Positions 19,071 to 37,988 are shown, counted from the first letter of the stretch. The stretch is DNA of 52,780 bases from an uncultured Candidatus Saccharibacteria bacterium (GCA_964412965.1 CAYPQU010000001.1:91771-144550), one strand, 5' to 3'. Made by a program: numbers and translations. The notes: generated by a model from the sequence alone, not told the origin.

Positions 19071-19099
19071 TTGCAATGTTTCCAAATATGTTATATATT
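19071..19099 (+). promoter_or_regulatory. rpmH operon promoter (leaderless geometry)
   Basis: TTGCAA-17 nt-TATATT, then 6 nt to the ATG. Confidence 0.6.
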
Positions 19100-19105
19100 C
19101 TTGGT

Positions 19106-21046: not shown

Positions 21047-21079
21047 AAAAACACCCGAAAATCGGGTGTTTTTTTATCT
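21041..21079. terminator. Bidirectional terminator between jag and the T4SS-like operon
   Basis: 18-bp perfect stem AGATAAAAAAACACCCGA / TCGGGTGTTTTTTTATCT. Confidence 0.88.
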
Positions 21080-22540
21080 AATATCTACTCCCCAGAGAGT
21101 GTAGTCTTTTTTGTTAATAAAGTAGATTGTGTTTTCTTCTTTGTTTATAGATAAATTATAACCATCAACAGGAGTTCCCTCAATAGAGTTTACATACGTA
21201 ATACTTTCGCCACTATCGGTATTAATTTTTACTAAGAAATCGTCAAAAGAAACAATTCCTTGATACCAAGAATCAGGATATTGGTTACCTTTTATTGTGT
21301 TAGGAACAAAACAATAGACATTTATACTATCTAAACTCCAGGTACATTTATCAGCTAGCCCATAAGAGTCTAGGTCTATGAATTTTCTACCTTCTTCGAT
21401 AAAGGCCATGAGTCTGGGGCCTTTATTTTCTGAAGAACTATAAAGAACTCTTTTCCCATCAGGGCTAATTTTTGTCGTTAAACCATTGATTCCACCAATA
21501 ACCTTCCTTAATGTTTTATTGGATTGACTTAATAAGTACATGTTTCCAGGGGCTACAAATGAGGGCTTCGTGGTTAGATAGATATTTCCTTTGTTGTCCC
21601 AATCTGACAACCACTCAGTAAATTGATGGTTAAAGATGTTTTGGCTGGCCCCAGTTTCAAAATTTCTAACAATTCCAGTGGTCGAATTATTGCTTTTTAC
21701 TAAATAAAAAAATCTACTTTGATCTTTTGATACACTAATGTCTGTAATATTTACGGGCAAATACTCCCCTGTTGGTTTACCAAGAGTTGCTAAAAATGTA
21801 TTTACGGTGTTTTCGTTTGATAAGTATCGATAAATTGTTGTATTCCCTTCTTTGTTAAAGAAAGCCTCATAAATTCTTGGTATGGTGGAATTAGATATTT
21901 TTTCTGAAGAACGATCTTTTTCTAACATTTTATATAGGTGTCCATTTTTTCTCTCCACATAGCGTATAGCTGGAAGCATTTCGTATGCTGCTTCCCCGGG
22001 TATTATTTTTGTTTCAGTAAAAGTGGGGGCTGTGTCTTTGTCTATTTTGCCTGTTACAGGAAGGCCTCTTTCTTTTTGATAGATCTTTAGGGCTTCTGTG
22101 GTAGCTTGGTCAATTACTCCGTTTTCTATTAGGGGTTTTAAAAGCGTTATGTTTTTGTTTAAGATTTGTTGAATTTTTGCAACCCCTTCTTTGGTGTTAG
22201 GACTAATTGGAAACTGTGTTTCTTTTGGCTCGAGTGAGTTTTCTATTAGAGATCTTTCTGTTGTTATAGACACTCCAGATACAGCAAAGTCTGTAATTTT
22301 AAATAGTCTAGATTTTTGCGTGGGTGTTTCTGTCTCTGTTCCTAAATCGATACCCTCACCTGGACCTGTTGGTTGCCCAGTGTTCTCACTAGTGCCGAAG
22401 GGATTAAATTGTTGATACCAAGGTAATTCTGCTTCGGGGGTATTTTTACCCCCCCTGTTAAACCAGAAAAATCCAAGTAGTATTAGAACACCTGCTATTA
22501 TAAATGTGACTATAAAAATTTTTTTCTGTTTTGAAGACAT
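21074..22540 (-). CDS. Membrane-anchored protein with peptidoglycan-binding domain and C-terminal beta-propeller-like region
   Basis: N-terminal TM; VAKIQQIL...ATTEALKIYQKERGLPVTGKID (PG_binding_1 pattern); SVSKDQSRFFY and ISPDGKRVLY propeller-type repeats; start at MSSKQKK preferred over 22573. Confidence 0.7.
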   Translation of the reverse strand: MSSKQKKIFIVTFIIAGVLILLGFFWFNRGGKNTPEAELPWYQQFNPFGTSENTGQPTGPGEGIDLGTETETPTQKSRLFKITDFAVSGVSITTERSLIENSLEPKETQFPISPNTKEGVAKIQQILNKNITLLKPLIENGVIDQATTEALKIYQKERGLPVTGKIDKDTAPTFTETKIIPGEAAYEMLPAIRYVERKNGHLYKMLEKDRSSEKISNSTIPRIYEAFFNKEGNTTIYRYLSNENTVNTFLATLGKPTGEYLPVNITDISVSKDQSRFFYLVKSNNSTTGIVRNFETGASQNIFNHQFTEWLSDWDNKGNIYLTTKPSFVAPGNMYLLSQSNKTLRKVIGGINGLTTKISPDGKRVLYSSSENKGPRLMAFIEEGRKFIDLDSYGLADKCTWSLDSINVYCFVPNTIKGNQYPDSWYQGIVSFDDFLVKINTDSGESITYVNSIEGTPVDGYNLSINKEENTIYFINKKDYTLWGVDIR

Positions 22541-22545
22541 ATAAA

Positions 22546-23961
22546 TTATTGACCTGTTGTTGACCAGTGCCAAGGTTCTTTCCCTGACTTAAGATTAATA
22601 AGTAAGGGCCCGGCGTTTTTTGATAGCCACTTAAAACAGGTATTTTCTTTATTGTTAATTGGAGCACCGTCGCAGCGGAAATCTATAGCCTTACCAGACT
22701 CGTGCATAGAATAACCAGGGCGAGCTGTTTCGGGATTACATTGATTTGACGGAGTGTTGTCATCTGGACAACCATGCCTAATCCTAAGAGCCTTTTGTTG
22801 TGCTGTGCTTCTAGAGCCAAATCCTCCGAGTTTTACACCTTCGGTTTTAGCTTTTTCTAATAATTTTGTTAAATCTGCTGCTATCGTTTTACAAACATTA
22901 ATAGGAGATGGGGTTCCAGGAGCTATTACGTCTACGAAACCTTCTGGACAAAGTATTTTGCTTCCTGAAGACGAGTATTCTGACCATGGAACGTTTTCTG
23001 TTTCTGGATCTATTTTTATCTCGACGGCTCTTATGTTCACGCCCCCTCCACCAAGCAATCTAGGGTCAATTGTATTTAAAAGTGCATAAGCACTAAGAGC
23101 AATCAAAAGTCCAAACAAAGCATTTTTCATTTGTTCTCTCCATTTAGTTTTTCCAAAAATGGATTCTTCCCCCATATATAGGATACCAGCAACTACCAGC
23201 ATTACTACAGCTAATGCTCCACACAAGGCTATTCCTATCACAAAAATCTTGTTTAAATAGTCACCAACATTTTCTGGCGCTTCATTGAATCCTGCAAAAG
23301 GTGCTAGTAGTGTATATTTTTCCCAACTTGGTTTACTTTTTGCAACCCTAGGGTTTACTTGTATTATGCCATTGTCGGTGTCTTGGAAATAATAAGTATC
23401 TTCTTCAAGAGGTTTGCCGTTTTTATCGGAAATGAAACAGTTTTGCCATGTAGTGTCAAATCGAGACTTGTCGGCAAATGGATTATTTGAAGATGCGTTC
23501 ATACAAGAAGCTTCGTCCATAAACACCTCGCCACTAAGGTCTTTTTTGTCAGATCGATAATAACTCCAATATTTTGTGATACTATCTTGCGTGGTTGTAG
23601 TTTGTGTTGTTCCTGTGGTGGAGGCCTTAGGATTATTTGTAGTTGTGGTTGTAGTTTGTGTTGTTCCTGTGGTGGAGGCCTTAGGATTATTTGTAGTTGT
23701 GGTTGTAGTTTGTGTTGTTCCTGTGGTGATATTTTTAGGAATTTCTGGTGTTTTTTGCAAAACACAAGGACCAGCGTCTTGTCTTAGCGGTTTAGCTAAA
23801 AATTTATTTCGCTCGACATTACATTCTGTTTCTGTATTGTATGTGTGGATTGTTTTTATTGGTGATTCAGTAAAAGTCCAAGTATCAGCAGAAAAAACAT
23901 CTTTTTCTAAAACAGCAAAAAGGATTATAAAGATTGCTAGTGTTGTAATTATATTCTTCAT
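22546..23961 (-). CDS. CPR T4SS pilin (TrbC/VirB2-like) domain fused to an M15 (VanY-like) peptidase, with Thr-rich linker
   Basis: Signal peptide; GALAVVMLVVAGILYM...MKNALFGLLIALSAYALLNTIDP pilin hairpin; RSTAQQ, SMHESGKAID (SxHxxGxAxD) and EPWH M15 motifs. Confidence 0.8.
   Translation of the reverse strand: MKNIITTLAIFIILFAVLEKDVFSADTWTFTESPIKTIHTYNTETECNVERNKFLAKPLRQDAGPCVLQKTPEIPKNITTGTTQTTTTTTNNPKASTTGTTQTTTTTTNNPKASTTGTTQTTTTQDSITKYWSYYRSDKKDLSGEVFMDEASCMNASSNNPFADKSRFDTTWQNCFISDKNGKPLEEDTYYFQDTDNGIIQVNPRVAKSKPSWEKYTLLAPFAGFNEAPENVGDYLNKIFVIGIALCGALAVVMLVVAGILYMGEESIFGKTKWREQMKNALFGLLIALSAYALLNTIDPRLLGGGGVNIRAVEIKIDPETENVPWSEYSSSGSKILCPEGFVDVIAPGTPSPINVCKTIAADLTKLLEKAKTEGVKLGGFGSRSTAQQKALRIRHGCPDDNTPSNQCNPETARPGYSMHESGKAIDFRCDGAPINNKENTCFKWLSKNAGPLLINLKSGKEPWHWSTTGQ
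23591..23729. repeat. 54-bp in-frame tandem repeat (~2.6 identical copies) encoding TTGTTQTTTTTTNNPKAS
   Basis: Unit starts at 23591, 23645 and 23699. Confidence 0.92.
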
Positions 23962-23962
23962 A

Positions 23963-24970
23963 TTATAGATTTACATTAAAAACATTGGTAACTTTTTGGA
24001 ATAACTCCTGAAGATTTTCGATTGTTAAGCCTATTTCTACATATCCATCTCTAGATGCTGGCCTTATGGATATTTCGTTTTTCTTAGGCGTGGATACCAT
24101 TTCCCCGTTAACATACCAAGTGTAATCAAAAAGATTATCGTTGTTACCAGTTGCTAGATTGTAAGGAGAAGCAACAAAGGTCGCCTGATCTTCCTCCAAA
24201 CTGAAATCTGTCGTGATGCCTCTATTATAAAGGATTCCATCTGTGGGGGATTTTTTATAAAAAATTAAAGATGGATTATATAATGGAATCCCAACTTTTT
24301 TTGTCGCATTGTAATTACCAGAAACAGAAGATGCCACTACTTCAATACTGTTTATTGTCTCAAACGCACTATTTTTGAAATAATAAGAATTCATATTATA
24401 TCCAGAACTTTCTTCTTGTGTCTTATTGCTATTTTTCCATGTATAATCAATCTTTCCAATTCCAGAAGTGATAGTATTAGAATTAGGTAATGCTACTACT
24501 TTGATTACTCCACCCCTAGAAGGTAAAGATTTTCCTTTATAAAAAGGAGGTGTGTACCCATCAAACGATTCCCACAGTAAATCGATATCTGATGGACTAA
24601 TAACAATCTTCTTTTTTATTGCTCCAGATTGTTCAGCTGGATTAATAGTGATATCAAAACTAATAGACAAATCTGGTCCTGGTGCATTAAATGTGATATT
24701 TTTTTTCCCTATACCAGATTGTGTCATGCCATTGTTTGACTGCCAGGTAATAAAAGCTTTATCGATATCAGTAGCATAGCTATATAATCTTATAGTAACC
24801 TCCTCGTATGGCTCAGGATTTGTTGGTATCATTTCGTAATTAATTTCATTTTCTTGCACGGTAATTTGAGAATCTGCAAAATGAACACCCTGAAAAAAGA
24901 TGATTCCTAGTGTAAAAATGTTAATTAAAAAAGTTTTTAATTTAAGCTTACCCACTATTCTATTATACAT
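23963..24970 (-). CDS. Hypothetical exported beta-rich (Ig-like) protein of the T4SS-like cluster
   Basis: Signal/TM at the N-terminus; PTNPEPYEEVTIRL, PPFYKGKSLP, YTW motifs; co-oriented and closely packed. Confidence 0.6.
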   Translation of the reverse strand: MYNRIVGKLKLKTFLINIFTLGIIFFQGVHFADSQITVQENEINYEMIPTNPEPYEEVTIRLYSYATDIDKAFITWQSNNGMTQSGIGKKNITFNAPGPDLSISFDITINPAEQSGAIKKKIVISPSDIDLLWESFDGYTPPFYKGKSLPSRGGVIKVVALPNSNTITSGIGKIDYTWKNSNKTQEESSGYNMNSYYFKNSAFETINSIEVVASSVSGNYNATKKVGIPLYNPSLIFYKKSPTDGILYNRGITTDFSLEEDQATFVASPYNLATGNNDNLFDYTWYVNGEMVSTPKKNEISIRPASRDGYVEIGLTIENLQELFQKVTNVFNVNL

Positions 24971-24999
24971 TAATATTAACTTGTGAACAATTTAAACCT

Positions 25000-26832
25000 T
25001 TATGCTCCACCAGAGTTCAATAGTTCATCTTTGGCCTTTTTAATTGCTAAAATTTGAGAAGGATCAGACGTAATTATCTGGTCTTCAGTATATGAAGCAA
25101 TTGTTTTGATTGCTACGTGCTTAAGTCCCGCGAAAAAGATACCCTCCCCCACATTGGCCTCTAACAAAAGATATTTTTCTTCATCTGTTAAGTTGAATGT
25201 TTTTTGTAAAACATCAACAGTAGAAGGAGATTGTTTTAAAAGAAGTTGCATTGATGAGTTTGTAACTATTGGGACTCCATATGGGCTTCTCATGAAGTCC
25301 CCAACATCTTGGGTAATAGTTGCTAAACCAAGCCAATATTTTCTCCCTCTTTTTGCAATTGAATACAAGAACGAGGCTGTGTCATCTGATTTCATCATCC
25401 ACCAAGCTTCATCCACCACCAGAAGTCTCTTTCTTATATTTTTTCTAACAGCGTTCCATATGTAGTGTGTCACAATATACATTGCGACTGGTTTTAAATC
25501 GTCCTCCATGTCTCGAACAGAAAAAACGATAAACTTTCTATTAATATCAACATTTGATGGTTGGTTTAAGAATGAAGACCAAGAACCCCTCGTGTATTTA
25601 ACCAGTCTTTGCATTAAAGAATCACTTCCCTCCATGCCAGATAGCACTATTTCAAAGTCTGACAACATTGGAGGTTCAATGTTTGAAAAGTCTGATTCGG
25701 CAGTGATATCTTTTAGTGCGTATGTTTCAGTAATAGCATGATCTATTATTGAGTCTTCTTCGGGGGTCAATCCTCCAAGCATAATTCTAAACAAGCCAAC
25801 AAGATTGATTACGTTAGCTCTTAATACATCAGCCCCTGTTTCGTCTCCTGTTGGGATCGGAAGGTCAAACGGATTTATGTGGTGATCTGAAGAAAGAGAT
25901 ATGTTAAAAAACCTTCCACCAACTGCTTCTGCTAAATACTCGTATTCTTTTTCAGGGTCAATTACAATAACTTCTGTATCAAACATCAGTGTTCTTAAAA
26001 TTTCTAGTTTTGTTGCGTATGATTTTCCAGCACCAGAAGTTGCAAAAGTAATAGAGTTATAGTTTGGAAGCGAAAATCTGTCAAGTAAAATAAGGCTAGA
26101 ATTGTGTCTGTTGACCCCATAAAGTATTCCCTTGTCTTCTGTAAGATCAAAAGAAACAAATGGGAAAATACTAGAAAGTGGCTCTGTGTTTAATTTTTGA
26201 CTAATAGTAAGAACATCACTTCCAATAGGTATAGAGCTCCTAAATCCTTCGTATTGTTGAAATAATGCAGGCTTTAGGTAGACAAGTTTTGATTCCAGTA
26301 TTGATTTAATTTCATTTTCAATCTTAAATAAATCATTTTCACTATCTGCGTAAACAGTTATATAAAGACTAACATCAAACATTTTTTCTTGAGCTTGCAT
26401 CAAATTATCTCGCAATTCTTCAAGATCTCTGTTGGCAGTGTCTAGCATGGGATCTCTAACCAGCCCTTTTGATTCTCGAACAGATATCTGGCTTTGAACC
26501 TCTGCCACCTTTTTTTGAAAAGCTCTTAATATTTCTGAAGTGTCAATTGGGTGGACAAAAATAGATATATCAAAAACTTTATCTAGGTTGATTATTGGAG
26601 AAAACCAGTTATCACTTAGGTATCTTGGATATGAAATAACAAAAAAGGTTCGAGCTATTTTGTCACCAAGATTCAGTGATTTCGGGGTTATTTGCATTGC
26701 TGAAGGCGCAATAATATCTTGGAGCTCTAGGGCTGCAGCTTTGTATATTTCGTTAGGCAGAATAGGCATAACAACCTTTTGGTCTATTATGGATTCTGGT
26801 TTTTTGTTAAATAATGAAGAAAATATTCCCAT
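25000..26832 (-). CDS. virB4: VirB4/TraC-like ATPase
   Basis: FATSGAGKSY Walker A, VIDPEKEY, INPFDL, LLVVDEAW Walker B, GRKYWLGLATITQ. Confidence 0.88.
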   Translation of the reverse strand: MGIFSSLFNKKPESIIDQKVVMPILPNEIYKAAALELQDIIAPSAMQITPKSLNLGDKIARTFFVISYPRYLSDNWFSPIINLDKVFDISIFVHPIDTSEILRAFQKKVAEVQSQISVRESKGLVRDPMLDTANRDLEELRDNLMQAQEKMFDVSLYITVYADSENDLFKIENEIKSILESKLVYLKPALFQQYEGFRSSIPIGSDVLTISQKLNTEPLSSIFPFVSFDLTEDKGILYGVNRHNSSLILLDRFSLPNYNSITFATSGAGKSYATKLEILRTLMFDTEVIVIDPEKEYEYLAEAVGGRFFNISLSSDHHINPFDLPIPTGDETGADVLRANVINLVGLFRIMLGGLTPEEDSIIDHAITETYALKDITAESDFSNIEPPMLSDFEIVLSGMEGSDSLMQRLVKYTRGSWSSFLNQPSNVDINRKFIVFSVRDMEDDLKPVAMYIVTHYIWNAVRKNIRKRLLVVDEAWWMMKSDDTASFLYSIAKRGRKYWLGLATITQDVGDFMRSPYGVPIVTNSSMQLLLKQSPSTVDVLQKTFNLTDEEKYLLLEANVGEGIFFAGLKHVAIKTIASYTEDQIITSDPSQILAIKKAKDELLNSGGA

Positions 26833-26836
26833 ATTA

Positions 26837-27502
26837 TTACTCGATTCTTATTCCTTGGCTAATATCACCAGGATTAAATGTTTTATAAAACAATTCTACT
26901 ACTTGGTCTGTTTTTAATTCTGTGGCTCGGATACCCATCCTTCCCAGCCCTCCTATTACTACCCCTACCCTTTGATCTAGCTGAGTCCTTTTTTCTTCAA
27001 AAGATATTAATTCAGAAGCTTCTTTTGATTTATTACCAGTCCCTCCACCAACGTTAACACTTCTACTGGCCCCCTTTAAAAGATCATCAAAAATTTTTCC
27101 AGTTTTAATCGTTGTTTCAGTATAAGGAACTACTATAAAAAAAGTTTTTGTCATAATATTAACTTCGTCAGTGAAAGTTTTGATGAAATCAATATATTCT
27201 TTCGTTTGTATTTTTAATAAAGGTTCAACTTGGTCTCTCATTCTGTTCTCTAGCGTTAATAAATATGGCCTAATATCTAATCGTCTTGATTGAACACATA
27301 TTTGTACAGTAAAATCCAAACTGTTTAAAAAATTCTGGAACTCTCTGATTATTGCTATTTGCTCATCAGAAGATTTAAGAGATAAGTTTAAGGAAGAAGC
27401 AAGCAAAACTGCCCTAAGGCCACCGTCTTTCAGTACGATGATTCCGTTTCTAACTTCTTTTATTGGAACAAAGTCTTGTGAACTTTTTGCGTTAATAGCC
27501 AT
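26837..27502 (-). CDS. VirB4-associated (TraC N-terminal-like) protein
   Basis: GIIVLKDG.LRAVLL.SSLN..LKS.DEQ, FQNFLNSLDFTVQICVQSRRLD; sits between PrgI and VirB4. Confidence 0.65.
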   Translation of the reverse strand: MAINAKSSQDFVPIKEVRNGIIVLKDGGLRAVLLASSLNLSLKSSDEQIAIIREFQNFLNSLDFTVQICVQSRRLDIRPYLLTLENRMRDQVEPLLKIQTKEYIDFIKTFTDEVNIMTKTFFIVVPYTETTIKTGKIFDDLLKGASRSVNVGGGTGNKSKEASELISFEEKRTQLDQRVGVVIGGLGRMGIRATELKTDQVVELFYKTFNPGDISQGIRIE

Positions 27503-27566
27503 AATGTTTATGTAATTTATTCAATGTTACAAATTAATTGTAGCATTTTTAAGATATAAAAACAGC

Positions 27567-27974
27567 TTACCTTTCTTCTTGTTCTTGAATGTCTAAACTC
27601 CAAGCCAAATCTTTTAGTTTGCTTGTGGTTGTCATTGGGACAATGGTAGTTAATGTTGGTTCTATTTCCTCTTTTTTCTTATCTTCGGCATGAACCAATC
27701 TTTGTTTCCATATAAAAAGCTTATTTGAAAAAAGATAATTAAAACCAGCTTGTAAATAAAAAACAAAAGGCTTGCCGTTCACTTTGTAAAAAGCTAGAAG
27801 TCCTGTCAGGATCCCCAGAGGAACTATTAATAGAATTGCTGCCCAAAAAGGAAATACTTTGTATACTATGTAGATGAGACCCGCTCCTCCGGCCAAATAA
27901 ACAAATTGCTTAAAGGTTAGTGGTCCAAAAAGCTTGTCTTCTACGTCTATAAATTGTGGAACTTTAAATTGCAT
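27567..27974 (-). CDS. PrgI family (VirB3-like) membrane protein
   Basis: MQFKVPQFIDVEDKLFGPLTFKQF, two TMs, AFYKVNGKPF. Confidence 0.85.
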   Translation of the reverse strand: MQFKVPQFIDVEDKLFGPLTFKQFVYLAGGAGLIYIVYKVFPFWAAILLIVPLGILTGLLAFYKVNGKPFVFYLQAGFNYLFSNKLFIWKQRLVHAEDKKKEEIEPTLTTIVPMTTTSKLKDLAWSLDIQEQEER

Positions 27975-27978
27975 ATTT

Positions 27979-28968: not shown

Positions 28969-31887
28969 TTAAGATGAACTTTGTTGTTGTTTTTCATATT
29001 TATCTATGGTTTCCTGTTCTTTCTCAATAATTTCTTTCTGTTTTGCTATAATGGATTCTTGCCTTTCTATGTTAGCTAGTAGCATTGCTTCTTTTTCTTT
29101 GCTCTTATTCTTTCTATCTAGGACACTAGAAATGTTCTTTATTTTAGCCTCACCATCTCTCTTTGTCTTATTGGCTTCAGCAAGCTCTCTTTGGGCGACC
29201 TGGCTTCCAGGATTTTGAGCTAAGATATTACTTAGTGAAATTATTCGAGCCTCTGCTTCTGAGACACTTTTGTTTACTTTTTCCATTGCTTGTTTAATGT
29301 GTTCTTTGTTGATATCCGCTATAGCTATTGGCTGACCTAATGTGTTCGCAACATCTTCCAGGTCTTTATTGATATCCTCCATTTCATTAGCAACATCTTC
29401 TTGACGACCCCTCATTTTTTCTATGATTTTTTCCACTTCTTCAACTTTGTTTTCTGCTCGAAGTTTGTTTTTTTCCGATAAGAAGTTTTCTTTGTGAGTC
29501 ACAGGTTTCTCGGCGTCAGGATCTTTTGATTTATCCTTTAGGTTTTTATCAATTCTGGCCATTGTGTTATCATTTGCGCCCCATACACCCCTCTTAAGAG
29601 ATTCTCTGTATGTTTGAACCTTTTCTCGATAAATCTGATCAGATGTTTTACCGTCGTTTTTATGTTTTTCTGTGTATTCTTTTTCGAACTTGTCTTGTTC
29701 TTTTTGATCAAAGGATTTACCCTTCCTGGCAAGTTCTTGAATCCTCTCGTTCTTCTCTTGATCCTTAATGTTGTTTTTATATTCTTCTTTGTATGCTTTC
29801 TCGTCGAAAGTACCACCACTATTCTCTACCTCGCGTTTTTTAGCATACATACTCCTCTGATACTTATCGTTGTATTCTTTTGCGGCGGCGTCTTGTTTTG
29901 CTGCTTCTGCATCAGAAGATTTTAATGTTTCAGCCATTTCTGTTTTCTTCTTTTCTACTCGACTCTGATAGTCAACATATCCTCCAGTCTTTCCTTTTCC
30001 AAGATTCTCCACTCCTGCTTCTTTGGCTACCTTTTTCCCAACATCTGTATTTCTTGCATCAAAACTACTCTTACTAGTAAAACTACCTATGTTTCTTAAC
30101 TGTCTTGCTCCCCACCCAGAGACACCTCCTTTGGCCGCTGCGTTTTGGAGTTTTTCGCTATTAGCAATACTTGCACCCATTTTACCTACCGTTGATCTCA
30201 TTGCAAAAGCACCTAGCCCAAGAGCTCCCCCAAGAGCTAATCCTCCGACCTTACCACCAATATTTCCAATCTTTGAAGTTATTGCTCCTGATATTTGTCC
30301 TGCTAGTTTAGTAGAGATTTTTTCAGCTTGTTTTAGGAGAACAATGATTACTATAAAAGGAATAATAACTGAAAGGACTTTGTTAAAATCAGTTAAAGAA
30401 GATGATTTTGTTAGTAGGTCTAACCCCATATTTGACTCCAAGAACATTACAATGATGTACATAAAGAAAACAAAGACAGGTGCCATAAAGGCAGCCTTAG
30501 TTGTTTCTGACCACCAACTAGACCACCCAACATAACTCCAATTTTGTGTTTCGGGTACCGTATAACTCAGAAAGGCTAGAGGAGATAAAACCATCGCGAT
30601 CCATAATCCAATAACTCTTCCTATGAAAGAAAGAGAGATTGTTAAAAAAGTCATCATTCCGACAAAGTTCACAATTGAAGCCATTATGGTGACAAGAATA
30701 AAAGTTCCAGCGCTGATGCCTTTACTTTCTTGTTCTATATTTGCCCTGGTTGTAATCTTCTGCGCATTGTCTCTGGCCACATTCTGGTTTTCTTGCAAAA
30801 GCAATCTTTGCGGATTGATTTTAGCAACTATTCCTTCAGACAATGGTATGTGTTCAAGTTCTTCATCTTGAGTATTATTTATTTCTCCACTAGCATCTTT
30901 TTCTCCTATAACAATAACTTTTGGATTATAAAACACTCTAGCCATTATATTTGAAGCATCGATGATTAAGTGTGTGGCAAAAAGACTAAAGTTTATTAAC
31001 AGACCAATTATTATTACATTTACAACACCAGCTTTATTTTTTGAACCACCAGAATCTAATATTGTAGTTAAAGCAATATAAAGAAGAATGAATATAAAGA
31101 ACATATTACAAAGATCTCTAACCACTTGCCAGCCCTCTGAAACAAAAGGTGTTCTATATGAACTATCGGAAACAGAATACATAATAGTAAAGTCCATTAC
31201 TGTACCTGCTAATCCAAAAAGGAAAGATGTTGGAACAAATAAAACATAGTAGAAAATTCTGGCAATACAACCCCCTATGTTTCTAAATCCGCAAGGTGGG
31301 AGATTTGATTGAGGAGCAACTCCTTCTGTTTCACCACTTAAATTTCCTCCTAAGCCAGTGTTTTCTGGTGTTGTATTTCCTTCTGGTAATGTCTCAGGGC
31401 CAAACTCCTGGGTCTCGATCACTATAGTATTCCCTGCAACATCTGGTTTTTCTAGGCCAAGATTACTTGTTTCTATAAGACTTTTTTCAAGATTAATGAC
31501 TAATTTGTATTGGGTCTCTGGTAATATTTTTTTATCGTCGAACAATAAGTCAAAAGGTTTTCCAATGTCTAGCTCCCTAATTGTTTTAAACTTTGTCTGA
31601 ATCTCTTTTTCATCTTTATCATAAAGGATGGCGGTGACTCTAATAGAAGCCTTTTCTGATCCTTTTAAAGACCTCCATAATTCAGAAACATTTTCTGCTT
31701 TTCCTACTGTGGTGGTAACTGTTATTGTCTTGTCTGTTACAAAAATAACATTATTAACATCTGCTCTCATTGTGTTTGCTCGAACTATTCTTGCTGAGAG
31801 TTTTTTGTTTAGAATGTCAATCGTAAAAGGCGCAAAGAATTGCATTATTACTGAAGATATTAAAATGAAAGGCAAAAATCTTTTCAC
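28969..31887 (-). CDS. VirB6/TrbL-like polytopic membrane protein with long coiled-coil C-terminal tail
   Basis: GWQVVRDLCNMFFIFILLYIA, LLINFSLFATHLIIDASN, LSPLAFLSYTVP...WWSET...AFMAP, 6-8 TMs, Gly-rich then K/E-rich tail; GTG start. Confidence 0.75.
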   Translation of the reverse strand: MKRFLPFILISSVIMQFFAPFTIDILNKKLSARIVRANTMRADVNNVIFVTDKTITVTTTVGKAENVSELWRSLKGSEKASIRVTAILYDKDEKEIQTKFKTIRELDIGKPFDLLFDDKKILPETQYKLVINLEKSLIETSNLGLEKPDVAGNTIVIETQEFGPETLPEGNTTPENTGLGGNLSGETEGVAPQSNLPPCGFRNIGGCIARIFYYVLFVPTSFLFGLAGTVMDFTIMYSVSDSSYRTPFVSEGWQVVRDLCNMFFIFILLYIALTTILDSGGSKNKAGVVNVIIIGLLINFSLFATHLIIDASNIMARVFYNPKVIVIGEKDASGEINNTQDEELEHIPLSEGIVAKINPQRLLLQENQNVARDNAQKITTRANIEQESKGISAGTFILVTIMASIVNFVGMMTFLTISLSFIGRVIGLWIAMVLSPLAFLSYTVPETQNWSYVGWSSWWSETTKAAFMAPVFVFFMYIIVMFLESNMGLDLLTKSSSLTDFNKVLSVIIPFIVIIVLLKQAEKISTKLAGQISGAITSKIGNIGGKVGGLALGGALGLGAFAMRSTVGKMGASIANSEKLQNAAAKGGVSGWGARQLRNIGSFTSKSSFDARNTDVGKKVAKEAGVENLGKGKTGGYVDYQSRVEKKKTEMAETLKSSDAEAAKQDAAAKEYNDKYQRSMYAKKREVENSGGTFDEKAYKEEYKNNIKDQEKNERIQELARKGKSFDQKEQDKFEKEYTEKHKNDGKTSDQIYREKVQTYRESLKRGVWGANDNTMARIDKNLKDKSKDPDAEKPVTHKENFLSEKNKLRAENKVEEVEKIIEKMRGRQEDVANEMEDINKDLEDVANTLGQPIAIADINKEHIKQAMEKVNKSVSEAEARIISLSNILAQNPGSQVAQRELAEANKTKRDGEAKIKNISSVLDRKNKSKEKEAMLLANIERQESIIAKQKEIIEKEQETIDKYEKQQQSSS

Positions 31888-31893
31888 AATTTT

Positions 31894-31902
31894 ATTATAA
31901 CA
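31894..31902 (-). promoter_or_regulatory. Internal extended -10 promoter of the VirB6-like gene
   Basis: TGTTATAAT, 6 nt before the GTG; a TTTCGCGAAA palindrome lies just upstream. Confidence 0.55.
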
Positions 31903-31968
31903 TTTTTTTCGCGAAATAACTCATACTTTTTGTTCGGAAAATTAAAAAACAGATATGCTACCAATGTG

Positions 31969-34023
31969 CTACCAAACATTAAGCAAAGCCTCGTATTCTT
32001 TTATAGGGAATGTATAAACCCATTCACACCCGGTCGCGTATCCTCTTCCGTACATTCGACAGGATTCAAAAGTTTTGAAATTACTACAGTTAAAGTTTTT
32101 ATTATGAGGGTCTGTTTTCCCCTTTCTGCAATATCCAAAAGTGTCACTTATTTGAGGTTTACAAGCCTCTGTTCCCGATAGTTCGGGGGTGCATCCTTGG
32201 ATTGCTTCTATTCCGCGATTTGCATACGGATCTTCATATAAATAATCAGCAATAGCTTTTTCATCCAAATAAGAACCTCTATTGTCGTAATCATACCAAG
32301 GGTTACCATATTTTGCTGTTGGGCCTGTATAACTAGGGCTACTTGTTTCCGCATAGCACTCTTTAATTAAAGTGTCTAATTGGCCGATAAAATTATCTTG
32401 ATCTAAAATATCCAAGTACACACTCGAAATACTTTCTTCTGACTGAAGGCTTGGTGCTATTAAGAAAAATTTCTTAGTTAAATCAGCTAGCTTGGCTTTC
32501 TCTTCCTCAGTAAAGGTGATAGGATTTTGTTCTATTAACAGACACTTATCTTCTGTTGGTGATTCGGATTCTGAATCGTGAGTCGGTTTATATTCGTTTG
32601 ATAAAATACCATCTATATGACAGTTTGGGTCTTCTATATCAATAAATTTATCACCATCATTATCAAGAGTGTCGTTACAAGCGTACGACAAAATTGATTC
32701 TGAGTTATAGTTGGGTGTATATTCTTTATTTAAATCACCTCCTACGTGACAAACAGGATCTTTTTCGTCTATCAATCCATCATTGTCGTTGTCTAAAGTG
32801 TCACTACATTCCGTTGAGTTTTTTGACTCTGAATCATATTCTGGCAAGTACTCTGCATTTAAATCACCTCCTACGTGACACTGAGGATCGTCGATGTCAA
32901 TGAGTCCATCCCCATCGTTGTCTTTTTCGTCACTGCACTCTGGTCTGCCTCCCGTGTCTGGAAGAACATTGGTTACCGAAAAAGTTGTCCATCCGCCACA
33001 GTTGTTGTCTTCAAAAGCTTCGTTTATGGAACCTTCATCAGATAAATCTTTTTTGTCAGCACATGCTCTTATGTAATAATTTCCAATCGAAGTAAAAGTA
33101 TTTTTTACTTTAGCTATCGCAGTATCTCGAGAATTGATTTGTGGAATAGTTGTTAATAAAAATAAACTATTAATAGAATTTCCTTCTTTTGTATCAGATA
33201 TTGTAAACAATACGTTTACGTCTTGTCCTGAATTTTCATTGCCCCTATTTTCTATAATTGAAGAAAGTTCAACTTCTGTATTGACGGGTGAGCTAATTGG
33301 ATAAACTATACCAGTAGTTAAATCCACTCCCTCAATTCCAAAATCAGGATCAAAAGGACTTACTGATTCTGAATAGTGATCAGGCACATATTCTTTATTT
33401 AAATCACCTCCTACGTGACACTGAGGATCTTCGATGTCAATGAGTCCATCCCCATCGTTGTCTTTTCCGTCACTGCAAATAGAGCTAGGATCAAAAGGAC
33501 TTACTGATTCTGAATAGTGATCAGGCACATATTCTTTATTTAAATCACCTCCTACGTGACACTGAGGATCTTCGATGTCAATGAGTCCATCCCCATCGTT
33601 GTCTTTTCCGTCACTGCAAAATTGATTGAATTTAAATCCATTACCTAAGAATTGAGAAAAGGAATTCCAGAAGGAATTAAAATCGGCTTCTGCAATTTCT
33701 ATTTCTCCTGACGCCCCTGCTTCTATGTTAGAAATAGCCTTACCGATACTATTGTCAGAACCTTTTTTAACTTTTCTAATGTCGCCATCTTTACCTGTTT
33801 CAATAACACTGTCTCCTGCACTAATGTATTCCTCAGCTATAACAAGCTCCCTTTTTAGATTTTCAGAAGTTTCTAGAGGGTTAAATATCTTAGTTAAAAC
33901 AGAAGAGGTTTTTACTCCGAAAGAATCTTTATTTTTATAAGCTAGAAACAGAACCAAGATTAGTACTATTAATACTAGTAGAGAAATTATTATTGCCTTG
34001 TTTCTTTTTTTCTTGTTTTCCAT
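31969..34023 (-). CDS. Membrane-anchored surface protein with five Cys/Asp-rich Ca-binding-like repeats and a CARDB-like domain
   Basis: N-terminal TM; 5 x C.D..DND.DG.ID..DP.CH; IENRGNENSG...YYIRACAD...INEAFEDNNC (CARDB-like). Confidence 0.75.
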   Translation of the reverse strand: MENKKKRNKAIIISLLVLIVLILVLFLAYKNKDSFGVKTSSVLTKIFNPLETSENLKRELVIAEEYISAGDSVIETGKDGDIRKVKKGSDNSIGKAISNIEAGASGEIEIAEADFNSFWNSFSQFLGNGFKFNQFCSDGKDNDGDGLIDIEDPQCHVGGDLNKEYVPDHYSESVSPFDPSSICSDGKDNDGDGLIDIEDPQCHVGGDLNKEYVPDHYSESVSPFDPDFGIEGVDLTTGIVYPISSPVNTEVELSSIIENRGNENSGQDVNVLFTISDTKEGNSINSLFLLTTIPQINSRDTAIAKVKNTFTSIGNYYIRACADKKDLSDEGSINEAFEDNNCGGWTTFSVTNVLPDTGGRPECSDEKDNDGDGLIDIDDPQCHVGGDLNAEYLPEYDSESKNSTECSDTLDNDNDGLIDEKDPVCHVGGDLNKEYTPNYNSESILSYACNDTLDNDGDKFIDIEDPNCHIDGILSNEYKPTHDSESESPTEDKCLLIEQNPITFTEEEKAKLADLTKKFFLIAPSLQSEESISSVYLDILDQDNFIGQLDTLIKECYAETSSPSYTGPTAKYGNPWYDYDNRGSYLDEKAIADYLYEDPYANRGIEAIQGCTPELSGTEACKPQISDTFGYCRKGKTDPHNKNFNCSNFKTFESCRMYGRGYATGCEWVYTFPIKEYEALLNVW
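33346..33620. repeat. Two identical 134-bp copies (141-bp period) within the 684-aa gene
   Basis: 33346-33479 and 33487-33620 read base-for-base identical; diverged copies near 32580-32940. Confidence 0.92.
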
Positions 34024-34025
34024 AA

Positions 34026-37000
34026 TTATCTACGGAAGGCACCATTGCCTTGATTATTATTTTGATCACTAAAAGCATCACCACCAGTATTACTAAAAGC
34101 ATCACCACTTGGATTCATGGTTCCACCAGGAGTGGTTGAACCTCTTATTATGCGAGAACAGTCTGGGTCTAGAGAGTCAGTTAACCCGTCAAAATCATTG
34201 TCTAATCCATCATAACATCTGTCCTCGGTATTTCCATCACCATTCATTATTTCTAAATCATCATAAAAAATAATTTGTTCGGTTTCTAGACAGCTAGAGT
34301 ATTTGTTTTTATAATCAGAGAGTTCCATAATTTTTCCTCCCCTTCTTTCTGCTTCTTCGTTTAGTATTTCTATCATTCTAGCATCTCTTCTCTGCTGAGC
34401 AGCTTTGATAATTTTATCAACCTCTGTTTTTATTTTTTCTAACTCGTAGACACCAGCTTGGACAGTAGCAATATTATCTTTATAAGCATTAATTTTATCA
34501 GTAATTTCCTGGTTATAATCCATAATTTGTCCAGCTATAGGATAGGCCACCTTCCCCACGGGCAGATAGGCACTGTTAGGGATTTTTTCTGCAGTATCTT
34601 CATGAATAAAATATTCTATATTTACTAAACCGTCTGTTCCATAAAGAAAATTAACAATCGAAGAGTAGTCTTTTTCAAATTGTTTTATTCCGTCTTCTAT
34701 TGCGGAAATAAGCATATCAACTTTTTCTATTAAATGATTTTCTTTTAAATTAATTTTCTCTGTTCTTATATTTCCTGTGTTGATTATTTCTCTCCAAGTA
34801 GAGGTATTGGATATCTTACCAGATCCATAAGTTACCATATCTTTAAAACCAACGGTTACGCCGTTTAGCATTGATGGTGTGTCTTTAAAGACATTTAAAT
34901 ATTTATCGAAAGTGTCTTCTCCAGGCTTAGCTATTCCAAAGTCTGTATATCCTCTTTTAAACCACCTTGCTTGTGTTGTCGTTGTTTTTAAAGAATACAC
35001 AAAATCTACCATGGCATTTTGGTATTCTTCAATATTTAGCAGCCAATTTCTGTTTGGTCCAGGAAGACAATAGTCTAACTCTCCTATTTTAGGCATGATA
35101 GAGGGAAGTTTTTGTAGTATTTCTTTGGCCGCAACGATGTAATCATACTGTATTTGGATAACACCTCTCTTTCTAATTGGATAAGTTTCTGAAATGCATT
35201 TACCCTCCATATTTGTTTTGCATTTTTTCCAATTTTGCCACTTCTCCCCGTCCCAAAAAGCTCTGTCTCCTACTTCCCAATAAGTGTATCCGTTATCAAA
35301 AAGTTTAGCTCTTCCGGGTTTAGATACCACATAATATACATTGAGCGGATAATTTATACTACCATCTGATTTAATCACTAAAGGTCCTATTCCTTCTACC
35401 AGGTTTTCTCTCGCCCCATTTTTCTGTGTAGCAATATTAGTAGTTACATCCCAAGTACCAAGATTATTCTCTTTTGTTATGCCAAAGATAAAACGATTTC
35501 CTAGATCTCTTGTTAAATCAAAAGAGCCATTTGTGTACCCAGTAGTAAGGGATTCCCCAGCATCTAATGCTCTACTAGTAGAAAGTCCTGAAGTCCAATT
35601 GAAGCGATCATCTTCGTAGACAAAGCTTTCTTTGGTGTTAATACCACTTAGCCCTTGAGATTCTAATTTGCTTACTAACATGGAAAAAACTGAGTTTAAC
35701 ACATGGTTAATGTCGTCAGCCAGCTCCAATTGTCTTTCTGGAGAATTCAAATAGTGAGAAGTCTTATCTTTAATAATACTTCCTGGGGTAACTGTTTCCC
35801 ACTTAATACACACTCTAGGCTGTATTGCTTTTGAGTTTGTCGTGTTTTGGTAATCAGTCATTTGTTTTCTGTAATTTTCTTGAAGATTTTTACATTCCTG
35901 GCTTCTAATGTCTTCACATATAGGAGCTAGGGGGGCTTTTGCACTGATCTGATCTTTAGTCTCTTCTTTTGAATACTCAACACACATTCTTTGACTTAAA
36001 AAACCGTCGTTTTGTATTAACTCTTCTTTTACTTCTTGTTTCCTTGTAAACGCATCTTCGTGAATGATATCTGAAGCACTCATGAAATATCCAAGAGGGT
36101 TATCGGCTTCATTTTGGGTAAAAGCTCCCCAAGCATCCCACCCTCCTCGATTAAAACTATCATAATAAAGTTCAACTGCTCTTCGGGACTTTTCTAGTTC
36201 TGTTTGCTTATGATTTTCCAGATTGTTTAATTGTTCATTAGACAAGTAGCTTCTAGGGTCAGTTACAAAATAGGATAACGTAGAGGTAAGATTTTGAAGA
36301 GCAGCCACCCCGCTTCGTTTTATACTTTTATCATTAACAAAAGCTCGAGCAAAAGCATTGCTATATGGGTAGGCTCCATCTGTGGTTGGCATTAAATAAT
36401 TAAGAGCTTCCTCAAAAAGATTTCTCTCTATATTATCAAGAAAACTTTGAGTGTTTTGGACAAAAAAAGGATCTCCTCCAAAACCAGAATTAACCCAATT
36501 GATAGCGTATCTCGTCATGGAGGTTAATTGATTTTTTGCTAGAGTAAAAGCCACTCCTTTTAGACACTGGGCATAGTCAAGTTCAGCTTTTTCCCTATTT
36601 TCTTTTTTGTTTTCCCAATAGTAATCAAAAGTTCCCATTGTGGTTTTCGTTTCGCTTTGACAAAGATATTTAATTCCATTAACAATTGCCGTAGTTTTTC
36701 CAGCTGATGGTGTTTGAGAAGTTTCTGTTCCGGCTGTTACGGTAGCTACTTTCCCTCCCGCTCTGTCGCATTGAGCTTTTATTTTATTAGTCAATTTTGC
36801 TCCCATCACTAAAGAATCCCAAGCTGAAGAAGTTAGGTCTGTGAATGCGGTGGAGAATGTGTTTACAAATCCTGTACAACCAAGTATCTGTCCAAACAAA
36901 TCAGCATTAACTATATCTGTAATTTTGACTTTATAAGGAGAAACTTTGCTGTTTGGATTTTCCCAGTTTAAAACAGCTGCCTCTAGTTTTGTTGCCCCTG

Positions 37001-37070
37001 AAAACAAAAAAATAAACAAAAATATTGTTAAACAAACTAATGATTTTAAATTTATTTGTCTATTAAACAT
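34026..37070 (-). CDS. Large exported Cys-containing protein of the T4SS-like cluster
   Basis: Signal peptide; MTRYAINWVNSGFGGDPFFVQN, GGWDAW, VTPGSIIK motifs; C-terminal CYDGLDNDFDGLTDSLDPDC repeat. Confidence 0.7.
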   Translation of the reverse strand: MFNRQINLKSLVCLTIFLFIFLFSGATKLEAAVLNWENPNSKVSPYKVKITDIVNADLFGQILGCTGFVNTFSTAFTDLTSSAWDSLVMGAKLTNKIKAQCDRAGGKVATVTAGTETSQTPSAGKTTAIVNGIKYLCQSETKTTMGTFDYYWENKKENREKAELDYAQCLKGVAFTLAKNQLTSMTRYAINWVNSGFGGDPFFVQNTQSFLDNIERNLFEEALNYLMPTTDGAYPYSNAFARAFVNDKSIKRSGVAALQNLTSTLSYFVTDPRSYLSNEQLNNLENHKQTELEKSRRAVELYYDSFNRGGWDAWGAFTQNEADNPLGYFMSASDIIHEDAFTRKQEVKEELIQNDGFLSQRMCVEYSKEETKDQISAKAPLAPICEDIRSQECKNLQENYRKQMTDYQNTTNSKAIQPRVCIKWETVTPGSIIKDKTSHYLNSPERQLELADDINHVLNSVFSMLVSKLESQGLSGINTKESFVYEDDRFNWTSGLSTSRALDAGESLTTGYTNGSFDLTRDLGNRFIFGITKENNLGTWDVTTNIATQKNGARENLVEGIGPLVIKSDGSINYPLNVYYVVSKPGRAKLFDNGYTYWEVGDRAFWDGEKWQNWKKCKTNMEGKCISETYPIRKRGVIQIQYDYIVAAKEILQKLPSIMPKIGELDYCLPGPNRNWLLNIEEYQNAMVDFVYSLKTTTTQARWFKRGYTDFGIAKPGEDTFDKYLNVFKDTPSMLNGVTVGFKDMVTYGSGKISNTSTWREIINTGNIRTEKINLKENHLIEKVDMLISAIEDGIKQFEKDYSSIVNFLYGTDGLVNIEYFIHEDTAEKIPNSAYLPVGKVAYPIAGQIMDYNQEITDKINAYKDNIATVQAGVYELEKIKTEVDKIIKAAQQRRDARMIEILNEEAERRGGKIMELSDYKNKYSSCLETEQIIFYDDLEIMNGDGNTEDRCYDGLDNDFDGLTDSLDPDCSRIIRGSTTPGGTMNPSGDAFSNTGGDAFSDQNNNQGNGAFRR

Positions 37071-37082
37071 TTTGATTATTTT

Positions 37083-37988
37083 TTATTCTGAAAATTTTTT
37101 TTGTAAACTATTCATTGTAGCTTCTATTTCCTCATTAATTTTATTGTAGAGTATAATTGATTTTAGTCCAGTAAGGGGGTCAATAATAGAATTTGATAGT
37201 CCTTCAATTGCTTGAGCAAGTTTTTCGTAATTATTTATTAAATTTAAATGATGCTGGTATAGAGTAGACGGCACTTCAGATAACAACATGAATTCTGACA
37301 AGCCTCTATAAACATCTGCCATTGATTTTGCTGTAATCAAAGGAATTGCATCTTGGTTGGCTATTCCTTGAGAAATTAGAACCATCTCACTGCCAAGATC
37401 ATTTTGTTCATAGATACTATACCATATTATCATGTCAGCGGCATAATCCGCAATAGAATCTTCTGTGTCGGCGACAATTTTAATATTATTTTGATTATAT
37501 TTATCAGGCGGTTCCTCTGCTATTATTTGCTGACCGATGGTTTCAGAAATAGAATTAATGTTTTCGTCGTTAATCTGGTCAGACCCAGAAAGTGATATTA
37601 TGGTAGCCAGGAGCTGTCTGGTCATTATTTCGTTGTCTGAAATGATGTTATTCTCTTTTTCTGGTGTAATTTCACCACTTTCTATCATTGTTTTTTTCTT
37701 AGCCAGGATAAAAGCTTTATTTTCCGGGCCATTTTTAGTAGGGTCTAATCCCCAAATATACTCTTCCCAATCAGGAATTCCGTTATTGTTACTGTCTTCT
37801 TGTATGATATCAGCCACTGTTGTTACCTCGACTTGTCCATTTTTATCCTTGTTTTTATTAATTAGATTTTTAGCAAAAGAAAAAGCTTCTTTTATTAAAA
37901 AACCAAGAGCCGCTACAACAACTATTGTTATCAAGCTCGTGGTGAATTTTTTACTCGGAAGATATTTTTTAAAATCTATTGTAGACAT
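37083..37988 (-). CDS. Single-TM protein with thrombospondin type 3-like Ca-binding repeat
   Basis: TM near the N-terminus, DSNNNGIPDWEEYIWGLDP, helical C-terminal domain. Confidence 0.7.
   Translation of the reverse strand: MSTIDFKKYLPSKKFTTSLITIVVVAALGFLIKEAFSFAKNLINKNKDKNGQVEVTTVADIIQEDSNNNGIPDWEEYIWGLDPTKNGPENKAFILAKKKTMIESGEITPEKENNIISDNEIMTRQLLATIISLSGSDQINDENINSISETIGQQIIAEEPPDKYNQNNIKIVADTEDSIADYAADMIIWYSIYEQNDLGSEMVLISQGIANQDAIPLITAKSMADVYRGLSEFMLLSEVPSTLYQHHLNLINNYEKLAQAIEGLSNSIIDPLTGLKSIILYNKINEEIEATMNSLQKKFSE

Follow-up and report, generated by a model that had tools for sequence, protein, structure and literature searches.

What does a type IV secretion system (T4SS) do when its genes lie in a chromosome beside dnaA, with no genes for DNA transfer around them? 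The question is raised by a locus at positions 21074-37988 of a 52,780-nucleotide (nt) stretch of DNA from an uncultured Candidatus Saccharibacteria bacterium (GCA_964412965.1, CAYPQU010000001.1:91771-144550); the whole stretch is referred to below as the window. The locus is filled by eleven minus-strand open reading frames (ORFs), g1 to g11 in the direction of transcription, which encode 301, 1014, 684, 972, 329, 135, 221, 610, 335, 471 and 499 amino acids (aa). The gaps across the ten neighbouring pairs are 0-81 nt, in agreement with an earlier interpretation made from the sequence alone (the sequence-only reading), which described eleven co-oriented, tightly packed genes. The explanation that we favor, with a probability of about 0.6, is a vertically inherited T4SS derived from the MPF-FATA lineage that would have lost its DNA-processing and coupling module and would display a surface tool based on g10 to open the wall at host contact. 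The parts, the gene order, the conservation of the slot and the absence of mobility genes are the observed portion of this explanation.

Relaxase-free T4SSs next to dnaA have already been published for Patescibacteria; therefore, the window opens no new class. It is a clean and complete Paceibacteria example, with a parts list kept in at least ~60 species. The lead lies in g10, where the sole pilin module is fused to a peptidoglycan (PG)-acting enzyme whose type differs between near-identical machines.

The T4SS core

The ATPase of the system is encoded by g8 (25000-26832, minus strand; 610 aa), a VirB4 of the Gram-positive CD1110/MPF-FATA type without its N-domain. The protein matches the CD1110 family of NCBIfam above the cut-off (2e-112, model positions 183-734 of 752) and P-loop_TraG of Pfam (3e-24). 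The closest solved relative in the Protein Data Bank (PDB) is 4AG5 (7e-39), and TrwK is matched at 1.4e-4. Both the Walker A motif (GAGKS, residue 267) and the Walker B motif (VVDEAW, residue 472) are intact. A search for homologues returned 8,000 proteins at E ≤ 1e-20. The best 120 of these 8,000 are 86-100% identical to g8, and the named entries among the 120 are all Patescibacteria (Paceibacterota, Nomurabacteria or Moranbacteria). By these matches, VirB4 is assigned to the MPF-FATA lineage, with its nearest relatives apparently in Patescibacteria. All window proteins were then mapped onto 80 related loci from species-representative genomes. The loci were picked by VirB4 similarity, and the VirB4 conservation figures are somewhat inflated as a result; a 10-kb flank limits the counts for genes distant from VirB4.

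Directly upstream of virB4, in the window and in 80/80 related loci, is g7 (26837-27502, minus strand; 221 aa), a TrsD-like protein that represents the VirB4 N-terminal domain as its own polypeptide. It matches TrsD (NF041427) at 3.2e-6, positions 101-233 of the Mbov_0397 family VirB4 model at 5.3e-9 and positions 2-128 of CD1110; no significant match was found in the PDB. Because g7 covers CD1110 positions 2-128 and g8 covers positions 183-734, the two proteins together (831 aa) amount to a split VirB4. The next gene, g6 (27567-27974, minus strand; 135 aa), encodes a small membrane protein of the PrgI/VirB3 type. The match to PF12666 (PrgI) is above the cut-off (1.9e-9), TcpE is matched at 3.6e-6, and orthologues with 39-67% identity are present in 76/80 loci. 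These results uphold the VirB4 and PrgI/VirB3 calls of the sequence-only reading, and its TraC-N-like protein is here the TrsD-like VirB4 N-domain.

The VirB6 component is assigned to g4 (28969-31887, minus strand; 972 aa), an extended polytopic membrane protein of the VirB6/TrbL type. A signal or anchor segment is followed by ~7 transmembrane segments at residues 200-520 and then by a long charged coiled-coil tail. In direct Pfam, NCBIfam and PDB sequence searches with g4 and ten orthologues, VirB6 was not matched. Homologues of g4 at E-values of 1e-20 to 1e-32 carry PF04610 and PF19590. A predicted structure of residues 185-575 (predicted local distance difference test, pLDDT, 84.8; predicted template-modelling score, pTM, 0.81) finds TrwI/VirB6 of R388 as its top three fold matches in the PDB (probability 0.99, E ~0.02), with a TM-score of only 0.24-0.36. 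The VirB6-like label given earlier therefore stands by way of homologues and the structural match only, through which g4 is identified as a putative VirB6/TrbL homologue, and not by a direct Pfam or PDB sequence match.

A pilin hairpin fused to a wall-acting enzyme

The single pilin hairpin of the window lies within g10 (22546-23961, minus strand; 471 aa), a modular protein. A signal peptide is followed by a Cys-containing N-domain with three Thr-rich repeats, a VirB2-type hairpin at residues ~216-303, a Gly linker and a VanY/M15 domain at residues 356-467. T4SS_pilin (PF18895) matches residues 234-297 at 3e-5, just below the Pfam cut-off; among the orthologues this match is as good as 9e-10, and five of them carry PF04956 (TrbC/VirB2). 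Three transmembrane-like segments are predicted, and the two-helix hydrophobic hairpin fits the pilin profiles. The C-terminal domain is a VanY/M15 (LAS) zinc peptidase (1.4e-8) with both zinc motifs, SMHESGKAID (residue 418) and EPWHW (residue 462), intact. Thus, the pilin-M15 fusion proposed earlier is confirmed. In its architecture g10 is unlike a small VirB2/TrbC pilin, which has ~100 aa and a hairpin right after the signal peptide: ~190 residues precede the hairpin of g10 and ~170 follow it. The Thr-rich linker is encoded by a 54-nt repeat (2.6-3 copies, 23591-23752), of which a plus-strand ORF at 23576-23968 is a shadow.

Across 69 orthologues of g10, only the hairpin region (window residues ~200-320) is conserved. 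T4SS_pilin is recognized in 58 of the 69, and a PG enzyme in about half. The C-terminal domains form 23 unrelated BLAST clusters, several of which have no Pfam match; the labelled types are NlpC/P60 (13 species), VanY/M15 (8, including the window), YkuD (5), Peptidase_M15_4 (3), SLT_2 (3) and SLT. Placing the 23 domain types on a tree of VirB4 requires no fewer than 44 changes, compared with a possible minimum of 22; this count is only rough because the tree is poorly resolved at such identity. The firmest evidence for swapping comes from species pairs with 92-94% identical VirB4 proteins, which bear non-homologous g10 enzyme domains. The N-terminal modules are swapped too, and include TIG, Big_1, Filamin, CBM_10 or, as in the window, a Cys-/Thr-rich region.

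At E ≤ 1e-3, a search with the hairpin only against 1.84 billion representative proteins returned 7,318 clusters. Long proteins that extend at least 100 residues past the hairpin make up ~144 of the best 150 matches. Among 103 of the best matches, 88 carry T4SS_pilin and ~70 carry a PG enzyme: VanY in 42, SLT, YkuD and NlpC/P60 in 8 each, and SLT_2, Amidase_5 and CHAP in a few. The hairpin nearest to that of g10 (80% identical) is joined to YkuD, not to M15. As judged from these proteins, fusion of the pilin hairpin to wall-acting enzymes appears to be the rule in this lineage. No earlier description of a pilin-hydrolase fusion was found in the limited literature searched, and the less-described detail of this T4SS would be a sole pilin module inside a larger protein whose enzyme domain swaps between close species.

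Locus L001, from the closest relative (95% identity in VirB4), encodes the pilin portion (313 aa) and the M15 portion (146 aa) as two ORFs at 7161-8578 that are interrupted in the Gly-rich linker, through either a genuine split of the gene or a frameshift in the assembly. A classical polymorphic toxin with an immunity gene was rejected as an interpretation of g10, as no variable small ORF follows it; the gap between g10 and g11 is ~5 nt.

A fixed chromosomal slot without mobility genes

In the window, the operon is flanked by core genes, as stated in the sequence-only reading: jag (20582-21046), on the opposite strand and convergent with g11, and rsmA/ksgA (38030-38821), upstream of g1 and co-oriented with the operon. 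Order and slot are conserved in the 80 related loci. The usual order is dnaN-dnaA, then rnpA-yidC-jag on the opposite strand, and then the genes for the propeller, the pilin protein, the Ig-like protein, VirB4, TrsD, PrgI, VirB6, the ~1000-aa protein and the TSP3 protein, followed by rsmA and uvrD. Among the loci that reach far enough, jag or yidC comes next after the propeller gene in 56/59, and rsmA lies ahead of the TSP3 gene in 20/20. Three loci (L013, L052 and L060) keep the T4SS gene order and have no jag, yidC or dnaA downstream; the dnaA-side junction is rearranged in these few species. Fixed positions are held by the Ig-like protein (76/80 loci, at full length), the pilin-enzyme protein (67/80), the propeller (66/80), the ~1000-aa protein (45/80) and the TSP3 protein (38/80). 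Variable between lineages are the M15 cassette (8/69 orthologues), PG_binding_1 (7/65 orthologues) and the 684-aa gene (9/80 loci). The earlier suggestion that this copy adds wall-binding and wall-cutting subunits and extra surface modules has to be dropped: most of these genes occupy fixed positions of the lineage, and only the three variable elements differ.

The median identity of VirB4 across the loci is 79%, compared with 65% for DnaA, and VirB4 is the more conserved of the two in 53/53 loci. The two identities are correlated (Spearman 0.75). Because VirB4 tracks DnaA and the slot is fixed, the locus appears to be vertically inherited and strongly constrained, and not an integrative conjugative element (ICE).

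No relaxase, VirD4, VirB11 or integrase is found among the ORFs of at least 100 aa in the window, the window contains no tRNA, and no direct repeats bound the cluster. The G+C content of the operon (0.33-0.38) is inside the range of the window, and a comparison with 72,556 plasmids gave no VirB4 closer than 36% identity. The sequence-only reading had reported that relaxase, VirD4, VirB11, integrase and att-like repeats are missing and had named a flanking relaxase and integrase with patchy distribution as the signs of an ICE; none of these genes or repeats occurs in the window, and the distribution is the fixed one described above. Its description of a chromosomal machine of the monoderm type, here one of MPF-FATA descent, without a DNA-transfer module close by is consistent with the CD1110-type VirB4, the slot and the correlation with DnaA.

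Relation to known systems

In the main text of Quinonero-Coronel et al. (2025, Microb Genom; PMC12102498), VirB4 is reported in 2,417 of 3,035 Patescibacteria genomes and forms one clade within MPF-FATA. TrsD, VirB3/PrgI, VirB6 and VirB2-like pilins are described near virB4 with almost no relaxases, and in Paceibacteria and Microgenomatia the T4SS adjoins dnaA, dnaN, rnpA, ksgA and rpmH (PMC12102498, main text). The window has in common with this clade the MPF-FATA VirB4, TrsD, PrgI/VirB3, VirB6, a pilin, the lack of a nearby relaxase or type IV coupling protein (T4CP) and the dnaA/ksgA slot, and its position near dnaA, dnaN, rnpA and ksgA fits the Paceibacteria pattern. The locus type was thus already known, as the sequence-only reading had held, since the missing relaxase and the dnaA/ksgA neighbourhood both stand in that main text. 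The same text gives no account of a pilin hairpin embedded in a longer polypeptide together with exchangeable PG enzymes, and the Ig-like, TolB-like, ~1000-aa and TSP3 genes are not listed there as constant components of the Paceibacteria locus. On sequence grounds, we regard the window as a typical Paceibacteria-type copy of the chromosomal, non-conjugative Patescibacteria T4SS. What seems new, to a limited extent, is the pattern of pilin-enzyme cassettes together with the accessory genes that are conserved in the Paceibacteria type.

Wang et al. (2023, Cell; PMC10633639) showed that the related T4SS cluster of Southlakia epibionticum, which also has no coupling protein or relaxase, is indispensable for growth as an epibiont. 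In strain ML1 the locus (SEML1_0005/0006-0019) starts ~4.5 kb from genome position 1 and shows the same order on one strand: VirB6, PrgI, a gene before VirB4, VirB4, a large protein, a wall hydrolase and an Ig-like exported protein (PMC10633639). S. epibionticum has six small separate pilins in an array, a separate lysozyme-like hydrolase and an NTF2-like protein (PMC10633639), whereas in the window a single hairpin is joined to an M15 peptidase and an array of pilins is lacking; essentiality is known only for the Saccharibacterium.

Like the Gram-positive conjugative T4SSs of MPF-FATA (pCF10 prg/pcf, pGO1 trs and CTn2 CD1110), the window encodes VirB4, a TrsD-like and a PrgI-like protein, and a PG enzyme downstream of virB4. 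The order VirB6-PrgI-TrsD-VirB4-x-wall enzyme parallels that of the S. epibionticum locus and also the orders of pCF10 and pGO1. Unlike these systems, the window has no relaxase or coupling protein, its locus is chromosomal and appears vertical, and plasmid VirB4 proteins are at most 36% identical to its own. Furthermore, the window contains a VirB2-type pilin module, which the Gram-positive conjugative systems do not have. Bordetella Ptl, Brucella VirB and Helicobacter pylori ComB are also driven by VirB4 with no VirD4 in the locus. These are diderm systems with VirB7/9/10 outer-membrane cores, and their sequence relation to the window is limited to VirB4, VirB3 and VirB6.

Surface, wall and cytoplasmic genes

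An N-terminal signal or anchor is predicted in eight of the eleven products; by transmembrane-segment prediction, VirB4, the TrsD-like g7 and the acidic g5 look cytoplasmic. Between virB4 and g10 lies g9 (23963-24970, minus strand; 335 aa), which has an N-terminal transmembrane-like segment and appears to be an anchored extracellular beta-rich protein. Its matches are of the Ig type: Hoc and a neuregulin Ig domain in the PDB for g9 itself, and Ig_3 (5/70), BiPBP_C (3/70) and PKD_3 (1/70) among its orthologues. We suggest that g9 probably consists of about three Ig-like domains; the earlier Ig-like label is correct in kind, and the matches behind it are weak. A VirB8/TcpC-like NTF2 protein was rejected for g9, which gives no NTF2 signal, just the weak Ig-type matches.

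The last gene, g11 (21074-22540, minus strand), encodes an anchor, a PG_binding_1 domain and a C-terminal TolB-like beta-propeller. With an upstream TTG start the ORF has 499 aa and would overlap g10 by 28 nt. Met12, at 22540, is nearly invariant in the alignment of orthologues and leaves a gap of ~5 nt to g10; because the alignment points there, we place the true start probably at Met12, with a product of ~488 aa. PG_binding_1 is matched at 8.1e-9 (residues 128-181 of the 499-aa ORF), and the propeller at E 0.0018 by a weak TolB profile match. PD40 is found in four orthologues, and the propeller part is kept in 64-66 loci. Of the PG-binding propeller described in the sequence-only reading, the PG-binding half is firm and the propeller half depends on the weak TolB match.

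Three genes for surface proteins precede VirB6. The first gene of the operon, g1 (37083-37988, minus strand; 301 aa), encodes a membrane anchor (one transmembrane-like segment at residues 14-32), a Ca-binding motif of the TSP3 type and a helical domain. The motif, DSNNNGIPDWEE at residue 65, is the single one of the bacterial TSP3 type in g1 and is clear in the orthologue consensus (DTDGDGIxDWEExLWGxDP), as the earlier TSP3-like call would have it; no Pfam or NCBIfam match was obtained for g1. The second, g2 (34026-37070, minus strand; 1014 aa), is rich in Cys and Trp, is exported or anchored, and carries a single C-terminal repeat of the acidic double-disulfide kind at residue 952 (NCBIfam acid_disulf_rpt, 4.3e-7). 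Its family consists only of ~1000-aa 'hypothetical' Paceibacterota proteins without a Pfam domain, and 69 columns are invariant in an alignment of 43 sequences. The third, g3 (31969-34023, minus strand; 684 aa), is an anchored surface protein with a Cys-rich C-terminus, a CARDB domain (2.3e-6) and five acidic double-disulfide (DNDGDG) repeats at residues 136, 183, 363, 406 and 449 (NF033662, 7.6e-34 in five stretches). An exact 141-nt tandem duplication at 33346-33620 encodes two identical repeat units. The 1014-aa and 684-aa proteins are thus repeat proteins as had been claimed, with a single repeat in g2. By its distribution, g3 is a lineage-variable insertion.

Finally, g5 (27979-28968, minus strand; 329 aa) is an acidic, helical and fast-evolving protein (71 D+E against 38 K+R) with no transmembrane segment, and is probably cytoplasmic. 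It is recognizable in only 18-23 of the 80 loci, although the slot usually holds an ORF.

A proposed mechanism and its alternatives

In T4SSs, pilin is dislocated from the membrane by an engine that VirB4 forms there with VirB3 and VirB6. We propose that VirB4 and the separate TrsD-like N-domain dock at the membrane via PrgI/VirB3 and the extended VirB6, and that this cytoplasmic-membrane engine would extract a VirB2-type hairpin as in other T4SSs, its substrate being g10. Because the sole pilin-type hairpin lies in g10, the engine is proposed to display or assemble a g10-bearing appendage. Such an appendage would be short and would carry on the surface the adhesin-like N-domain and the PG-acting enzyme, which is M15 in this genome. 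The Sec-dependent proteins, namely the Ig-like g9, the TolB-like propeller g11 (PG-binding in this copy) and the Ca-binding or Cys-rich g1-g3, would form the part that spans the wall or makes contact. The wall would be opened at the site of host contact, and macromolecules could then pass in or out; the process would not be conjugation. The role of the Patescibacteria T4SS has been called 'completely unknown' (PMC11665869), and in a 2025 review and a 2024 perspective effector delivery and nucleotide or DNA uptake are offered as guesses. The role in attachment, penetration, uptake or effector delivery that we infer, as the sequence-only reading did, matches this published speculation.

Several points weigh against this explanation. 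With ~190 aa before and ~170 aa after its hairpin, g10 may not polymerise, and the hairpin may be a mere membrane anchor. The VanY/M15 domain may be a carboxypeptidase that does not cut the wall, and the YkuD domain of some g10 orthologues has a transpeptidase fold. No fold was obtained for g2, the largest conserved protein, from a PDB profile search, AlphaFold (pLDDT 51.9) or Foldseek, and no family match for g5 from Pfam or NCBIfam. For the membership of g1-g3 in the machine, synteny and co-orientation are the sole argument. In addition, T4CP homologues lie mostly far from virB4 in many Patescibacteria, according to the main text of PMC12102498; a VirD4 or relaxase may lie elsewhere in the genome.

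The alternative that survives best is that the g10 enzyme acts on the cell's own wall only, as a helper of the VirB1/PrgK type that perforates the wall so that the machine can be assembled, and that swapping is neutral replacement; we consider this possible, although the evidence leans the other way. g10 is a membrane-anchored PG-acting enzyme two genes downstream of virB4, as is the case for VirB1-type hydrolases (PrgK/TraG/TcpG-like). Although it has neither the SLT nor the CHAP/NlpC-P60 catalytic domain of these hydrolases, SLT and NlpC/P60 occupy the same position in its orthologues. Gram-positive T4SSs carry an anchored multi-domain PG hydrolase beside virB4, such as PrgK, TraG and TcpG, whose domains vary (PMC12102498, main text). 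The organism makes peptidoglycan, as indicated by genes for PBP1 (13483-15996) and an M23-LysM protein (43961-44956), and no immunity-like gene separates g10 from g11. In contrast, neutral replacement fits poorly with non-homologous enzymes in machines whose VirB4 proteins are 92-94% identical and with the number of changes on the VirB4 tree, rough as it is. The adhesin-like N-modules are swapped as well, a pattern commoner for surfaces under diversifying pressure.

Another interpretation carries the favored explanation one step further: the 'pilin' of Paceibacteria would be more than a simple filament subunit and would bear a polymorphic tool, specific to each species and composed of an adhesin-like domain, the hairpin and a PG enzyme, which VirB4 pushes out to breach the host wall. 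Cassette swapping, which is rapid, would then record adaptation to different host envelopes. We regard this extension as doubtful. If it is true, g10 would determine host range, and this could be read from its sequence. Should the enzyme act on the host wall, the role of the T4SS in the candidate phyla radiation would be linked to a simple biochemical assay and to host prediction from metagenomes.

An uptake machine like H. pylori ComB or archaeal Ced, which would draw in DNA or host macromolecules for a nucleotide-deficient cell, seems unlikely to us. Known uptake T4SSs are also without a coupling protein and relaxase (PMC11665869). The T4SS has been proposed as a candidate route of nucleotide acquisition because ComEC is dispensable in S. 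epibionticum (PMC11665869). VirB4 matches the CedB model at 7.9e-7 over ~70 residues; however, this weak match is confined to the conserved ATPase core and scores 28 bits against a cut-off of 700. The locus has no DNA-binding or DNA-processing protein and no specific homology to ComB or Ced beyond that core. Otherwise, uptake differs from the favored explanation just in the direction of transport, which cannot be read from sequence.

A comparably low probability is given to the idea that g1-g3 are an unrelated surface-protein cassette beside an eight-gene T4SS. The rarity of g3 among the related loci and the lack of any T4SS-family match for g1-g3 are consistent with such a cassette, but g1 and g2 are placed between rsmA and VirB6 in all loci that extend far enough, the gaps are 2-81 nt, and the cluster contains no minus-strand terminator. 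Lastly, an ordinary ICE, or its remnant, that transfers DNA between cells is rejected as highly improbable. In its favor, VirB4 belongs to a family of conjugative Gram-positive systems (CD1110) and a UvrD/PcrA-type helicase gene lies two genes upstream; this gene, however, is a conserved housekeeping neighbour. The window lacks a relaxase, T4CP, integrase, tRNA target and bounding repeats, plasmid VirB4 proteins are distant, the base composition of the operon falls in the range of the window, and the same jag-rsmA slot across species goes with VirB4 divergence that tracks DnaA.

Transcription unit, replication origin and neighbouring genes

Inverted-repeat and terminator scans identify a hairpin at 21041-21079, with an 18-bp stem free of mismatches, where the 3' ends of jag and g11 converge. 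The minus strand of the cluster has this sole terminator-like hairpin at its 3' end and none inside, and the hairpin is likely to be a bidirectional terminator that closes the operon. A promoter scan of the window was uninformative (61 sites, compared with 63.5 expected by chance). Directly upstream of the operon, rsmA and the UvrD/PcrA helicase gene (38859-40781), the second gene from g1, are co-oriented with it, with gaps of 41 and 37 nt, and are kept in related loci. Because a further hairpin, at 40812-40850, precedes uvrD, a single co-directional unit of ~19.7 kb is possible.

On the jag side of the operon lie dnaN (16263-17360), dnaA (17588-18937) and rpmH (19076-19246), after which rnpA and yidC follow. 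The rpmH-rnpA-yidC-jag and dnaA-dnaN genes are in the classic divergent arrangement, with a spacer at 18937-19076. The earlier term origin-adjacent is justified as far as dnaA is concerned; the raw cumulative GC skew of the window has no minimum there. DnaA boxes are not enriched window-wide (21, compared with 16.2 expected), and three DnaA-box-like sites clustered at 17423-17581 are suggestive. The replication term of the third-codon-position skew (plus strand) is -0.09 left of 19 kb and +0.06 right of it, noisy and ~3 sigma by our own estimate. The switch near 19 kb hints at, and is compatible with, an origin at that position. The operon is transcribed toward the rpmH-dnaA spacer, convergent with rpmH-rnpA-yidC-jag, and right of 21 kb the minus strand holds 28.1 kb of coding sequence, compared with 1.0 kb on the plus strand. 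If oriC lies at dnaA, a conserved, essential-looking operon and almost everything rightward of it would be head-on to replication.

Many related metagenome-assembled genome records (e.g. those of loci L001, L005 and L006) are titled 'uncultured Candidatus Saccharibacteria', and their VirB4 and neighbouring genes match Paceibacteria/Nomurabacteria. One homologue of the 1014-aa protein (P0320) is labelled Clostridia. Both labels are probably labelling or binning issues.

Elsewhere in the window, no Pfam family was assigned to six ORFs of 217-921 aa (4544-7309, 41148-42605, 42766-43434, 47285-48181, 7436-8164 and 414-1067); those of 921 and 485 aa are large proteins near the locus. At 8338-10038, at a distance of 11 kb from the operon, the window encodes a PilB/T2SSE-type ATPase with an MshEN domain, of the kind used in type IV pilus assembly; besides the T4SS, type IV pili are the apparatus that has been tied to epibiosis in Patescibacteria.

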